Positions 1,616 through 10,451 of a stretch of 10,501 nucleotides of DNA are shown here, in pieces. The notes beneath the pieces are model-generated. The model made no database searches, was not told the origin of the DNA, and saw nothing but the letters and a program-made list of their open reading frames with translations. Both the position numbers and the translations under genes were made by a program. The stretch is from the UHGV virus genome UHGV-0105382, one strand, 5' to 3'. Numbering within the stretch: the stretch's first letter is position 1; the number at the start of each line of letters is the position of its first letter. The DNA comes from a virus.

Positions 1616-2119
1616 ATGGCAAGCAGAGGCGTAAATAAGGTGATCATTATTGGTCGCCTTGGGCATGATCCAGAAATCAGATATTCACCATCAGGAACGG
1701 CATTTGCAAACCTTACAGTTGCTACGTCAGAACAGTGGCGTGATAAGCAAACTGGAGAGAAAAAGGAGCAGACGGAGTGGCACCGTGTGGTAATGAGCGG
1801 GAAACTGGCAGAAATTGCCAGCGAATATCTGCGAAAAGGCTCTGAGGTTTATCTTGAAGGCAAATTGCGGACAAGAAAATGGCAGGATCAAAGCGGACAG
1901 GATCGGTTCACTACCGAAATCATCGTGGGCGTTGGTGGAACTATGCAAATGATTGGTGGCAAGCAAGGAGGCAATGAACAGTCTTCACCTCAGCGAAATA
2001 ACGGTCAGCAACCTCAGCAGCAAGGGAATCACAGCGAACCACCTATGGATTTTGACGACGATATCCCCTTTGCACCAGTAACTCTCCCCTTCCCTCGTCA
2101 CGCTATTCACGCAATTTAA
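1616..2119 (+). CDS. ssb: Single-stranded DNA-binding protein (phage SSB) with a C-terminal extension past the DDDIPF tip
   Basis: N-terminal OB fold nearly as in E. coli SSB ([16 protein letters not shown]...TEWHRVV...), Gly/Gln-rich linker, conserved MDFDDDIPF motif, then 15 more residues ([15 protein letters not shown]) before the stop. Confidence 0.9.
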
Positions 2120-6316: not shown

Positions 6317-6352
6317 TTGCGTGTAATTGCGGAGACTTTGCGATGTACTTAA
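6317..6352 (+). promoter_or_regulatory. pI-like cII-dependent promoter (TTGC-N6-TTGC box overlapping the xis start)
   Basis: TTGC at 6317-6320 and 6327-6330 with a 6-nt spacer, the direct-repeat architecture of lambda cII sites. The surrounding sequence (TTGCGTGTAATTGCGGAGACTTTGCGATGTAC) matches what I recall of the lambda pI/xis region. Confidence 0.5.
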
Positions 6353-6561
6353 CACTTCAGGAGTGGAACGCACGCCAGCGGCGCCCAAGAAGCCTTGAAA
6401 CAGTTCGTCGATGGGTACGCGAGTGCAGGATATTCCCTCCTCCGGTTAAGGATGGAAGAGAGTATCTGTTCCACGAATCAGCGGTAAAGGTTGACTTAAA
6501 TCGACCAGTAACAGGTAGCCTTTTGAAGAGGATCAGAAATGGGAAGAAGGCGAAGTCATGA
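6343..6561 (+). CDS. xis: Excisionase Xis (lambda-type, 72 aa)
   Basis: Translation MYLTLQEWNARQRRPRSLETVRRWVRECRIFPPPVKDGREYLFHESAVKVDLNRPVTG... is essentially the lambda Xis sequence as I recall it. GGAG at 6331-6334. 3' end overlaps the int start as in lambda. Confidence 0.95.
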   Translation: MYLTLQEWNARQRRPRSLETVRRWVRECRIFPPPVKDGREYLFHESAVKVDLNRPVTGSLLKRIRNGKKAKS

Positions 6562-7612
6562 GCGCCGGGATTTACCTCCTAACCTTTATATAAGAAACAA
6601 TGGATATTACTGCTACAGGGACCCAAGGACGGGTAAAGAGTTTGGATTAGGCCGAGACAGGAGGATAGCAATCACTGAAGCTATACAGGCCAACATTGAG
6701 TTACTCTCAGACAGCGGACGCAAATCACTGATAGACAGAATTAAAGGCGGTGACGCAATCACTCTTCATGTGTGGCTTGACCGATATGAAAGAATCCTCA
6801 CCGAAAGGGGGATCAGGCCGAAAACTCTACTCGACTACGCCAGCAAAATCAGGGCAATCCGAAGAAAATTGCCGGACAAACCGCTCACTGACATATCAAC
6901 GAAAGAAGTGGCAGCAATGCTAAACACCTACGTAGCAGAAGGTAAAGCAGCTTCCGCAAAATTAATCAGGTCAACCCTTGTTGACGTTTTTCGTGAAGCA
7001 ATAGCCGAGGGGCATGTGGCAACGAATCCGGTAACAGCAACCCGTACAGCAAAGTCAGAAGTAAGGCGCTCAAGGCTGACAGCTAATGAGTATGTCGAGA
7101 TTTACCATGCAGCCGAACCTCTCCCTATCTGGCTAAGGCTGGCGATGGATTTGGCCGTCGTTACAGGGCAGAGAGTCGGCGATTTGTGCAGAATGAAATG
7201 GTCAGACATAAACGACAACCATCTTCACATTGAACAGAGTAAAACAGGGGCTAAACTCGCCATTCCGCTAATGCTAACGATTGACGCGCTCAATATCTCA
7301 TTGGCTGATACACTACAGAAATGCAGGGATGCCAGCAGCAGTGAAACTATAATCGCATCAAAGCATCACGATCCGCTTTCCCCGAAAACAGTATCAAAGT
7401 ATTTTACAAAGGCGAGAAATGCATCTGGACTCTCATTTGATGGAAACCCGCCAACATTCCATGAACTGCGTAGCCTGTCAGCGAGGCTATACCGGAACCA
7501 GATTGGCGATAAGTTTGCTCAACGTCTTCTCGGGCATAAATCAGATTCAATGGCGGCGCGGTATAGGGACAGCCGTGGACGGGAATGGGACAAAATTGAA
7601 ATCGACAAATGA
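6539..7612 (+). CDS. int: Tyrosine integrase, lambda Int family (357 aa)
   Basis: N-terminal arm-binding domain matches lambda Int (MGRRRSHERRDLPPNLYIRNNGYYCYRDPRTGKEFGLGRDRRIAITEAIQANIEL). Catalytic residues are placed as in lambda (VVTGQRVGDL, HELRSLSARLY, LLGHKSDSMAARYRD, C-terminus REWDKIEIDK). The central core-binding region differs from lambda. Confidence 0.95.
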   Translation: MGRRRSHERRDLPPNLYIRNNGYYCYRDPRTGKEFGLGRDRRIAITEAIQANIELLSDSGRKSLIDRIKGGDAITLHVWLDRYERILTERGIRPKTLLDYASKIRAIRRKLPDKPLTDISTKEVAAMLNTYVAEGKAASAKLIRSTLVDVFREAIAEGHVATNPVTATRTAKSEVRRSRLTANEYVEIYHAAEPLPIWLRLAMDLAVVTGQRVGDLCRMKWSDINDNHLHIEQSKTGAKLAIPLMLTIDALNISLADTLQKCRDASSSETIIASKHHDPLSPKTVSKYFTKARNASGLSFDGNPPTFHELRSLSARLYRNQIGDKFAQRLLGHKSDSMAARYRDSRGREWDKIEIDK

Positions 7613-7706: not shown

Positions 7707-10451
7707 GTGAATTTAACCCTGACCCGAAGACTCTGGATGGGCTTTGCCCTGATGGCGCTGTTAACCCTGACCAGTACCCTGGTGGGATGGTACAACCTGC
7801 GCTTTATCAGCCAGGTGGAAAAAGACAACACTCAGGCATTGATTCCTACCATGAATATGGCGCGCCAGTTGAGCGAAGCCAGCGCCTGGGAACTTTTCGC
7901 CGCGCAGAACCTGACCAGTGCCGATAACGAAAAGATGTGGCAGGCGCAGGGGCGAATGCTCACCGCACAAAGCCTGAAGATTAATGCGTTGCTGCAAGCA
8001 TTACGGGAACAAGGTTTTGATACCACCGCTATTGAACATCAGGAGCAGGAGATCTCCCGTTCGTTACGTCAGCAAGGGGAACTGGTGGGACAGCGTTTGC
8101 AACTGCGCCAGCAACAACAGCGACTCAGTCAGCAGATAGTCGCCGCCGCCGATGAAATCGCACGCCTGGCGCAAGGTCAGGCGAATAATGCGGCAACTTC
8201 CGCCGGAGCGACCCAGGCCGGGATTTACGATTTGATCGAACAACATCAGCGTCAGGCCGCAGAAAGTGCACTCGATCGGCTGATTGATATCGATCTTGAG
8301 TATGTTAACCAGATGAATGAACTGCGCCTTAGCGCCCTGCGGGTGCAGCAAATGGTGATGAATCTGGGGTTGGAACAGATCCAGAAAAATGCGCCAACGC
8401 TGGAAAAGCAGCTCAATAATGCGGTGAAAATTCTGCAACGTCGGCAAATACGCATTGAAGATCCGGGAGTTCGTGCTCAGGTCGCAACAACGTTAACTTC
8501 CGTTAGCCAATATAGCGATTTGCTGGCGCTGTATCAGCAGGACAGTGAAATCAGCAATCGCCTGCAAACTCTCGCCCAAAATAACATCGCCCAGTTCGCG
8601 CAGTTTAGTAGCGAAGTCAGTCAGTTGGTCGACACCATTGAGCTGCGTAATCAGCACGGACTGGCGCATCTGGAAAAAGCCAGTGCACGCGGGCAATACA
8701 GCCTGTTATTGCTGGGGATGGTTTCACTTTGCGCACTGATTCTGATCCTCTGGCGCGTGGTTTATCGCTCAGTCACGCGTCCACTTGCCGAACAAACGCA
8801 GGCGCTGCAACGGCTGCTGGACGGTGATATCGACTCCCCTTTTCCGGAAACCGCTGGCGTGCGGGAGCTGGATACCATCGGGCGGCTGATGGATGCGTTT
8901 CGCAGCAGTGTTCATGCACTGAATCGCCACCGCGAACAGCTGGCGGCGCAGGTCAAAGCGCGTACAGCTGAATTGCAGGAGCTGGTGATAGAACACCGAC
9001 AGGCACGGGCGGAAGCAGAAAAAGCCAGCCAGGCAAAATCGGCGTTTCTGGCGGCGATGAGCCATGAGATCCGCACACCGCTGTACGGTATTCTTGGCAC
9101 CGCGCAACTGCTGGCAGATAACCCCGCACTTAATGCCCAGCGTGATGATTTGCGGGCAATTACCGACTCTGGTGAATCGTTGCTGACCATCCTCAACGAT
9201 ATTCTCGATTATTCGGCTATCGAAGCAGGCGGCAAGAATGTTTCGGTCAGCGATGAACCCTTTGAACCGCGCCCGCTGCTGGAAAGTACCCTGCAATTAA
9301 TGAGCGGAAGGGTGAAAGGTCGCCCGATTCGCCTGGCAACAGAAATTGCCGACGATGTACCGACTGCGTTAATGGGCGATCCGCGGCGTATTCGTCAGGT
9401 CATTACCAACCTGTTGAGCAACGCCCTGCGTTTTACTGACGAAGGACAGATCGTTTTACGTAGCCGCACTGATGGCGAGCAATGGCTGGTCGAAGTGGAA
9501 GACAGCGGCTGCGGTATTGATCCCGCGAAACTGGCTGAAATCTTCCAGCCATTTGTTCAGGTTAGCGGCAAACGCGGCGGCACCGGGCTGGGGCTGACCA
9601 TCAGTAGCCGTCTGGCCCAGGCGATGGGCGGCGAACTGAGCGCCACCAGCACGCCGGAAGTTGGAAGCTGTTTTTGTTTACGCTTGCCGTTACGTGTTGC
9701 CACTGCACCCGTGCCAAAAACAGTCAATCAGGCGGTGCATCTGGACGGTTTACGTTTGCTGTTAATTGAAGATAACCCGCTAACCCAGCGAATTACCGTT
9801 GAGATGCTGAACAACAGTGGGGCGCAGGTCGTTGCGGTAGGAAATGCCGCGCACGCAATAGAGACGTTGCAAAATAGCGAACCGTTTGCTGCCGCACTGG
9901 TGGATTTTGATCTGCCCGATATCGACGGCATTACGCTTGCCCGGCAACTGGCACAGCAATATCCGTCGCTGGTTTTGATTGGCTTTAGCGCTCATGTCAT
10001 CGACGAAACGTTGCGCCAGCGTACCAGTTCATTATTTCGCGGGATTATCCCTAAACCGGTGCCGCGTGAAGTGCTCGGTCAGTTACTGGCGCACTATCTC
10101 CAACTGCAAGTCAATAACGATCAACCGCTGGATGTATCGCAACTCAATGAAGATGCTCAGTTGATGGGGACGGAGAAGATCCACGAATGGCTGGCATTAT
10201 TTAAACAACATGCCCTGCCGCTTCTCGATGACATCGGCATCGCCCGCTCCAGCCAGAACAGCGAAAAAATAAAGCGTGCCGCACATCAGCTAAAAAGCAG
10301 TTGCTCGAGTCTGGGAATGCGTAGCGCCAGCCAGCTATGCGCACAACTGGAGCAGCAGCCATTATCTGCCCCCCTTCCACACGAAGAAATTACACGCAGT
10401 GTTGCCGCTCTGGAAGCATGGTTGAATAAGAAAGACCTGAACGCGATTTGA
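7707..10451 (+). CDS. torS: TMAO-responsive hybrid sensor histidine kinase TorS (914 aa from the GTG at 7707; 904 aa if started at the ATG at 7737)
   Basis: Translation matches E. coli TorS as I recall it ([22 protein letters not shown]...). Two transmembrane segments flank a periplasmic domain, followed by an H-box ([11 protein letters not shown], His codon 9063-9065), G-boxes (DSGCGI, GGTGLGL), a receiver domain (LLIEDNP; Asp codon 9903-9905 in [10 protein letters not shown]) and a C-terminal HPt (AAHQLKSS, His codon 10284-10286). Counting from the internal ATG these residues are His443, Asp723 and His850, the phosphorelay positions as I recall them for TorS. Confidence 0.95.

Follow-up and report, generated by a model that had tools for sequence, protein, structure and literature searches.

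A conserved peptide beyond the SSB-Ct motif in single-stranded DNA-binding proteins of phages and conjugative plasmids

[quoted passage not shown] Judged by comparison with homologous sequences, this tail is ancestral, widespread and under purifying selection as protein. Neither 'DIPFAP' nor the tail strings were found in the papers searched, where C-terminal extensions of SSB are represented only by the laboratory mutant SSB+Gly and by unrelated cases, and where we found no natural SSB with a capped tip. A conserved tail beyond the tip in SSBs of phages and plasmids thus appears to be an undescribed natural variant.

The ssb gene and its genomic setting

The ssb gene (1616-2119) was recognised from the list of open reading frames, a Pfam match and a PDB match as encoding a bacterial-type SSB of 167 aa that belongs to a lambdoid or P22-like prophage; it, its parts and the neighbouring recombination genes are all on the plus strand. 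The Pfam family SSB (PF00436) matches residues 6-105 of the protein with E=1.4e-38. These residues make up the OB-fold DNA-binding and tetramerisation domain (1631-1930), in which AF2 predicts the OB strands with pLDDT of about 66-84. The protein also matches E. coli SSB in the PDB (1EQQ, E=5e-66), and 89 of 115 residues of the OB domain (77%) are identical between the two, from which we infer that it probably acts as an ssDNA-binding homotetramer. The following disordered Q/G/N-rich linker (residues 106-141; 1931-2038) was called from its composition (nine Gln, eight Gly and four Asn among 36 residues) and from the AF2 pLDDT, which stays under 50 from residue 111 onwards. Over residues 111-167 the pLDDT is about 30; the tail is predicted to be disordered, and at these values the model is uninformative on its intramolecular docking.

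After the linker comes an 11-residue SSB-Ct motif (2039-2071) that aligns to, and equals, the last residues of E. coli SSB, with DDDIPF at 2054-2071. It is followed by the 15-residue C-terminal extension (2072-2116) and the TAA stop codon (2117-2119), and the extension ends in HAI-HAI, encoded by a 9-nt tandem repeat that can be read directly from the sequence (CACGCTATT CACGCAATT; 2099-2116). The translation bears out the first-pass annotation, which had placed DDDIPF inside the protein with 15 codons to the stop; the span it gave, 2041-2119, had the right extent, but its start fell off a codon boundary. By its OB fold, its disordered Gly/Gln/Pro-rich linker and its acidic motif the protein belongs to the bacterial SSBs, yet the terminal SSB-Ct with a free Phe carboxylate that defines the family is absent. 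Chromosomal E. coli SSB (PDB 1EQQ/4MZ9), which likewise has a Q/G-rich disordered linker and whose SSB-Ct is identical, ends with the motif, whereas in the window SSB 15 more residues follow the Phe and its carboxylate is not free.

In the window lies the early-left recombination region of a prophage of the lambdoid or P22-like kind. Upstream of ssb, in the same recombination module, lies the gene for a Rad52/Rad22-family single-strand annealing protein (908-1615; Pfam PF04098, E=7e-26), and downstream are genes for a DnaQ-like 3'-5' exonuclease (Rv2179c-like; 2128-2676; PF16473, E=2.8e-73) and for the anti-RecBCD protein Abc2 (2693-2986; PF11043, E=4.5e-62). The exonuclease gene starts 8 nt past the ssb stop, and in the window no endonuclease ORF lies between the two. 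This gene module corresponds to the Rec module that Casjens, Smith and colleagues describe as 'epsilon34-type'; by their account, the 'SSB-1' proteins of lambdoid Rec modules have never been studied experimentally (PMC12315714). An identical ssb gene in the same context is present in E. coli strain 165, where RefSeq annotates it as ssb. Farther along the window, excisionase and integrase genes (6343-7612) adjoin torS. The excisionase gene (6343-6561) and the gene of a 357-aa tyrosine integrase (6539-7612) abut torS (7707-10451), and the end of the prophage and its attachment site should therefore fall in the ~95 nt before torS.

Conservation and spread of the tail

Fifteen sense codons past a lost stop codon are expected by chance in ~49% of cases, so the length of the tail alone means nothing and a comparison with homologues is needed. 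The alignment that the first-pass annotation had proposed for this purpose showed the extension to be conserved, as a 15-aa tail of the same pattern, [AS]P[VIL]TLPFPRH[AT][IV][HY][AV][IL], was found in ~115 of the 120 best protein clusters, which come from Escherichia, Klebsiella, Citrobacter, Salmonella and Enterobacter. Residues P142, P143, F146, D148, P151 and F152 are invariant in our SSB alignment (A1), and across the tailed SSBs the tip that precedes the tail stays intact. We propose to group as class 1 those proteins in which [DE]-x-[IV]-P-F is followed by [AS]P[VI][TG]L[PQM][FY]P.H.I..[ILV], a tail of ~15 aa, and then by the stop. The window SSB has this arrangement, and its tail matches all conserved positions of the class-1 logo, which is built from 30 unique sequences. 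The variants of HAIHAI (HTIHVI, HAIYAI and HLINVI) retain [HN]-x-[IL]-[HYN]-x-[ILV].

The tail is kept where the rest of the gene, or its own DNA, has diverged. Phages HK75 and g341c have a tail identical to that of the window although their SSBs are only ~70% identical to it, and Hafnia phage Pocitis76 and Vibrio phage V039C have 15-residue tails that can be aligned to the window tail, with diverged DNA. Viral contigs that encode the same tail peptide differ from one another by up to seven nucleotide changes, all of them synonymous, and 14 of 45 nt but only two amino acids differ between the tails of the window and of an IncN conjugative plasmid. For the tail, pN/pS was 0.10 (pS 0.41), and for the OB domain encoded in these genes it was 0.175; both are pooled Nei-Gojobori estimates from the enterobacterial subgroup, that for the tail from the 13 codons after Ala-Pro, in which non-independent pairs are pooled over very short regions. 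Among 5426 complete E. coli genomes, 283 have the junction between tip and extension.

[quoted passage not shown] The position of a module boundary exactly at the ssb stop codon suggests recombinational homogenisation at a mosaic joint.

A DNA- or RNA-level element within the tail codons was considered and rejected, as neither a promoter-like or terminator-like site nor an Rfam family was found in the tail region, and its RNA folding was no better than that of shuffled sequences (z=+0.40). The ribosome-binding site of the downstream gene is positioned past the ssb stop, and the genes found 3' of tailed ssb genes vary by element (exonuclease, abc2 or a convergent gene). A programmed frameshift that yields a terminal tip was rejected as well: inspected by eye, the +1 frame after TTT reads ...IPFHQ-stop and no stop lies close by in the -1 frame, so neither frees the tip.

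To follow the tail beyond the closest relatives, viral contigs and one genome per species were scanned for DDDIPF followed by Ala-Pro, and tail classes were assigned by regular expression. Among the matches listed, which all have the Ala-Pro imposed by the scan, recurrent tail classes track host lineage: class 1, here AP[VI][TG]L[PQM][FY]P.H.I..[ILV], in Enterobacterales, Vibrio and Alteromonadales; APLHHLAGA and APIS[RK]LLL[NQ]II in Pseudomonas; APEWR or APEVR in Rhizobiales; and APHFDGQF in Psychrobacter. In an unbiased sample, the 150 closest representatives of 50%-identity clusters, residues after the tip were found in 15, and only ~5 of these 15 tails start with Ala-Pro. The usual neighbour of a housekeeping ssb gene is uvrA. 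A uvrA query found no homologue at any of the 120 genome loci listed, indicating that the tailed SSBs there are not housekeeping copies, and the neighbours at the listed loci are genes of phage recombination, for YqaJ, ERF, RecT, Sak4-like AAA_24, DnaQ-like and RdgC proteins.

Class-1 tails are also carried by SSBs of phage-plasmids and of 87 conjugative IncN-type plasmids, and a 31-aa query of tip plus tail was covered over at least 80% of its length in 125 phage records. PVP-SE1 gp38, phi92 gp156 and the proteins of the rV5-like phages Bas50 and Bas54 share with the window SSB the ending ...DDIPF plus class-1 tail, for example APIGLQYGRNFIHCI or APVGLQYGKSRIHAL, and the tail of phi92 gp156 (...APIGLQYGRNFLHCF) is closely like that of PVP-SE1 gp38. 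In these virulent myoviruses, unlike in the window, tip and tail are borne on a larger, different SSB-like scaffold, and the rV5-like protein has no Pfam match. Tip and tail move together as a single C-terminal unit, which is found on several different ssDNA-binding scaffolds and in mobile elements of several kinds. At the tailed ssb loci no neighbour and no annealing protein co-occurred consistently with the tail: class-1 tails are found beside Rad52-like, ERF, RecT and Sak4-like annealing proteins, and on the IncN plasmid the gene lies beside antirestriction genes, near a replication gene.

Other arrangements were seen at single groups of loci. A ~213-aa non-OB protein encoded beside a Sak4-like AAA_24 ATPase ends in the tip and a short tail (IMG/VR contigs L113, L106, L117 and L062), and blastp does not group it with canonical SSBs. 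In Pseudomonas prophages (L014-L252, class 2), a protein of ~121-124 aa (MAEEQQ...EKFTVEVAG...) with no Pfam match is encoded directly 3' of 48 of the 68 SSBs with an APLHHLAGA-type tail. The Enterobacter phage-plasmid p60214CZ_1 (L255:3043-3660) carries a gene for a Shedu immune nuclease convergent to, and immediately after, that of an extended-tip SSB (...NDDIPFASIGLQYGKHRIYVL).

Endonuclease genes at the junction of tip and tail

Close homologues that all end at DDDIPF had been named in the first-pass annotation as a sign of sequencing error or recent mutation. Among close homologues some do end in ...IPF and others do not, and in those with this ending that we examined (Sf6, Huey, ES18, sal5 and E. 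coli ACN001) an inserted endonuclease gene comes directly after ssb. Sf6 (gp27/gp26), Huey and ES18 (gp48/gp47) have the same SSB lineage and recombination module as the window; their SSBs, however, end in ...IPF with the endonuclease gene next, and in Sf6 and Huey the endonuclease reads into the orphaned tail codons. These endonucleases have been treated as nucleases of the Rec module (PMC12315714).

The ssb genes of Sf6, N7, IME10, Bas106 and E. coli ACN001 end with ...NFDDSDIPF-stop and are followed by a 159-aa endonuclease ORF (PHROG 2340) whose last 14 residues are the orphaned SSB tail, the DNA being identical to window 2075-2119. ORFs of PHROG 2340, 155-159 aa long, were located between ssb and abc2 in ACN001 (L001:3484-3963), Sf6 (gene 26) and Huey (CDS0028). 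'Endonuclease' is here the PHROG name and 'HNH', as applied to the gp26 family, a motif read by eye; endonucleases of the Sf6 gp26 type and of the rV5 type have no Pfam match. When the window is compared with Sf6 or ACN001, and HK75 with Huey, the ssb genes are near-identical up to the tip, where the occupied allele continues with a recoded tip, a stop and the endonuclease ORF before reaching CCAGTAACT.... Huey and HK75 form an occupied/empty pair whose ssb genes are 99.5% identical over 435 nt, and Huey differs from HK75 by nine changes in ~30 nt of the tip (MDFDDDIPF to MNFDDEIPF-stop) and a 438-nt insert, after which the tail is identical. In ES18 and sal5 a different endonuclease (Pfam HNH_3) follows ...NFDDEIPF-stop and the tail is lost. 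The window has neither a stop after ...IPF nor an endonuclease ORF before the next gene, and the comparisons of occupied with empty alleles mark its tip/extension junction (about 2066-2077; GATATCCCCTTTGCACCAGTAACT) as a hot spot of repeated insertion that is empty here. The junction between endonuclease and tail is present in 104 of 5426 complete E. coli genomes, where the ORF is left unannotated by RefSeq.

We rejected the idea that the tail belongs to the endonuclease family. The phrog_2340 profile does not extend past residue 143 of the 159-aa protein, and distant members of the gp26 family have no tail, yet they lie directly 3' of a gene ending in ...DIPF (Pectobacterium phage DU_PP_I) or of ssb (Vibrio phage 252E42.2). 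This means that gp26 captured its tail from ssb, and that ssb did not acquire it from the endonuclease. In DU_PP_I (L011:1-1626) the large unannotated p037 ends with ...EDVDFDLDIPF-stop and the gp26-family endonuclease p036 comes next, which places the same endonuclease family after tip-bearing genes in unrelated phages. In Vibrio phage 252E42.2 (L012:572-1120) and about 30 related 'D' phages, ssb ends with ...DFDDDRS-stop, where a 9-nt insert, CGGTCTTAG, precedes the in-frame GACATCCCGTTCTAA (DIPF-stop); the insert thus cuts off the tip just upstream of the gp26-family endonuclease gene.

The rV5-like gene occurs with three states of its 3' end: a free tip (Bas55), a recoded free tip with a homing endonuclease (Bas51) and an extended tip (Bas50 and Bas54). 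In Bas50 and Bas54 the last codons of the extended tip overlap the start region of the endonuclease, whereas their sisters Bas55 and Bas51 have a terminal tip.

Possible roles of the tail

The nearest natural relatives of the window SSB are the lambdoid SSB-1 proteins, and its nearest experimental analogue is the E. coli SSB+Gly mutant. One Gly added to the C-terminus of E. coli SSB made the affinity for chi undetectable and gave small colonies on complementation (Naue et al. 2011, PMC3045619), and the loss of chi binding was put down to a lost salt bridge with the Phe carboxylate (PMC3045619). Both proteins have a C-terminal addition after the tip Phe, but SSB+Gly is a laboratory mutant with one extra residue, measured on chi and impaired in growth, whereas the window SSB is a natural, conserved version with 15. 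By analogy with this mutant and its poor complementation, the expectation of the first-pass annotation that an internal tip changes partner binding is likely to hold.

We propose, at slightly less than even confidence, that the protein is a capped mobile-element SSB, in which an OB fold, a linker and an acidic SSB-Ct are combined with a conserved disordered tail that blocks canonical docking of host proteins and probably docks a host-encoded factor. With the tail after the Phe there would be no free alpha-carboxylate, and the tip would be barred from its usual pocket in chi; by analogy with chi, docking to ExoI, RecO, RecQ and PriA would be blocked likewise. The ssDNA coated by the tailed SSB would be insulated from the nucleases, helicases and RecFOR/RecA loading that host SSB recruits, and would instead be handled by the recombination and replication proteins that the element encodes. 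In addition, the tail probably serves as a short linear motif to which a host-encoded factor docks. Capping needs no particular sequence and the tail is strongly and class-specifically conserved, which argues for more than a passive block: capping would not be the whole selected function, and the tail would also serve as a motif. The protein may, as the first-pass annotation suggested, be a dominant negative on the host SSB interactome or a specificity switch. That one tail class accompanies four unrelated families of annealing protein, and is found in virulent phages and on an IncN plasmid too, makes a host-encoded partner more likely than an element-encoded one, and the tail is probably a docking peptide for a host factor.

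Insulation of ssDNA fits the place of ssb beside an anti-RecBCD gene. It also fits the damping of mating-induced SOS by conjugative-plasmid SSBs (PMC8406263) and the interplay with ExoI and the DRT10 defence that was proposed for a tip-bearing phage SSB-like protein (bioRxiv 10.64898/2026.04.29.721553). Against it stands the perfect conservation of a DDDIPF that would be disabled, for which insulation gives no reason. Viable phages of the same lineage have a terminal tip (Sf6, ES18, Huey and Bas55), so the tail is dispensable for growth in the laboratory.

An alternative that we consider unlikely is that the tail is a C-terminal degron for a host AAA+ protease (ClpXP, ClpAP or Lon), which would make the SSB short-lived, with capping as a side effect. 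Signals for ClpX include non-polar C-termini such as the ...RRKKAI end of MuA. In every tail class the last residues are small or aliphatic and a basic residue is present (...HAI, ...YAL, ...LAGA, ...LNII), the tail lies at the extreme C-terminus of the region that AF2 predicts to be disordered, some phages do without it, and no element-encoded partner co-occurs with it, all of which would suit a degron. However, the tails end in HAI, YAL, NVI or LAGA and lack the C-terminal L-A-A of the ssrA-like ClpX degron; the conserved L5, P8 and H10 of class 1 lie far from the C-terminus, beyond what known C-terminal degrons need; and the constant start of the tail directly after the tip Phe would be left unexplained.

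A partner from the element's own genes, with the tail serving to dock the annealing protein or the exonuclease, for instance, is quite unlikely. Such a pairing would suit the position of ssb between these two genes, and a cognate pair of SSB tail and annealing protein has a precedent in the HK620 SSB (HhaK), whose C-terminal NDYPPF recruits Sak4 (PMC5928155). The likeness is that of a phage SSB tail making a specific contact within its recombination module; the HK620 SSB belongs to a different fold family, and its tail is terminal and tip-like, with no extension past a canonical tip. What speaks against such a partner is that the same tail class is used alongside four unrelated annealing families or none, including on IncN plasmids and in virulent myoviruses with different neighbours, and that Huey, with a terminal tip, and HK75 have annealing-protein genes that are 98.9% identical.

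Highly doubtful, too, is a pro-peptide, from which a protease cutting after the Phe would expose a normal SSB-Ct as a timed activation. Perfect maintenance of the internal tip would be expected of it, and Ala-Pro or Ser-Pro recurs after the Phe in otherwise unrelated tail classes, but the Ala-Pro start is in part imposed by the search, as the unbiased set makes plain, no protease is known or encoded nearby, and conservation of the whole tail exceeds what a cleavage site needs. We regard as very improbable that PVTLPF in the tail is a motif for the beta sliding clamp, by which SSB would be tethered to the clamp or the clamp sequestered. The clamp-binding motif, QL[SD]LF or the hexapeptide QLxLxL, opens with Gln and carries hydrophobic residues at 2, 4 and 5 or 6, with QLSLPL in Hda and QLVLGL in Pol IV as examples. 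Class-1 tails keep hydrophobic-x-L-x-[FY] at positions 3-7 and so fit its spacing, but the nearly universal Gln is replaced by Pro, and the tail classes of Pseudomonas and Rhizobiales do not fit. We give next to no weight to the reading of the tail as a neutral artefact, due to an error in sequencing, to the recent loss of a stop codon or to the scar of a deleted downstream endonuclease gene: the same 45 nt do form the 3' end of the endonuclease ORF in Sf6, Huey and E. coli ACN001, from where a deletion could fuse them to ssb, and cluster P0044 joins the recoded tip NFDDEIPF to the tail, but diverged homologous tails occur on SSBs in lineages without such an endonuclease, the endonuclease profile stops before the tail and distant members are tail-less, and the junction recurs in hundreds of independent genomes under strong purifying selection on the tail. 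The conservation data refute this reading, and wide conservation together with purifying selection excludes the stop-codon loss or sequencing error that the first-pass annotation had allowed for.

Relevant to the capped-SSB reading are two further groups of known proteins. One is the SSB-like family of PVP-SE1, phi92 and the rV5-like phages, to which Bas52_0087 belongs; two OB folds are reported for it, and Bas52_0087 is the reported trigger of DRT10 (bioRxiv 10.64898/2026.04.29.721553). This preprint mentions FDDDIPF but not the tail, and gives no per-phage data on capped versus free-tip Vequintaviruses. Conjugative-plasmid SSBs (F/pED208 type, PMC8406263) resemble the window SSB in being accessory and borne on mobile elements, and the SSB of the IncN plasmid has the same tail class; no role for a tail on conjugative-plasmid SSBs is reported.

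Bacterial genome-maintenance proteins are taken to find ssDNA through a universal handle, the free Phe at the C-terminus of SSB, and here a large natural class of mobile-element SSBs keeps this handle and adds a conserved peptide cap. This raises the question whether such elements insulate their ssDNA from host nucleases, from RecFOR/RecA (SOS) and from defence systems that monitor ssDNA, as well as the questions of what the tail binds and why the 3' end of ssb is a hot spot for selfish endonuclease genes. Natural pairs of alleles with and without the tail are available in HK75 versus Huey and in Bas50/54 versus Bas55, making these questions directly testable. The finding also bears on tools for recombineering in which annealing proteins and SSB tails are used as pairs. 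More broadly, and only tentatively, phages, phage-plasmids and conjugative plasmids of Proteobacteria may routinely append host-lineage-specific peptides to the SSB-Ct, silencing recruitment of the host interactome and engaging a specific host factor. If true, this would be a widespread, undescribed device for host takeover or evasion of defence, and the endonuclease insertions at the junction would toggle SSBs between capped and free states.
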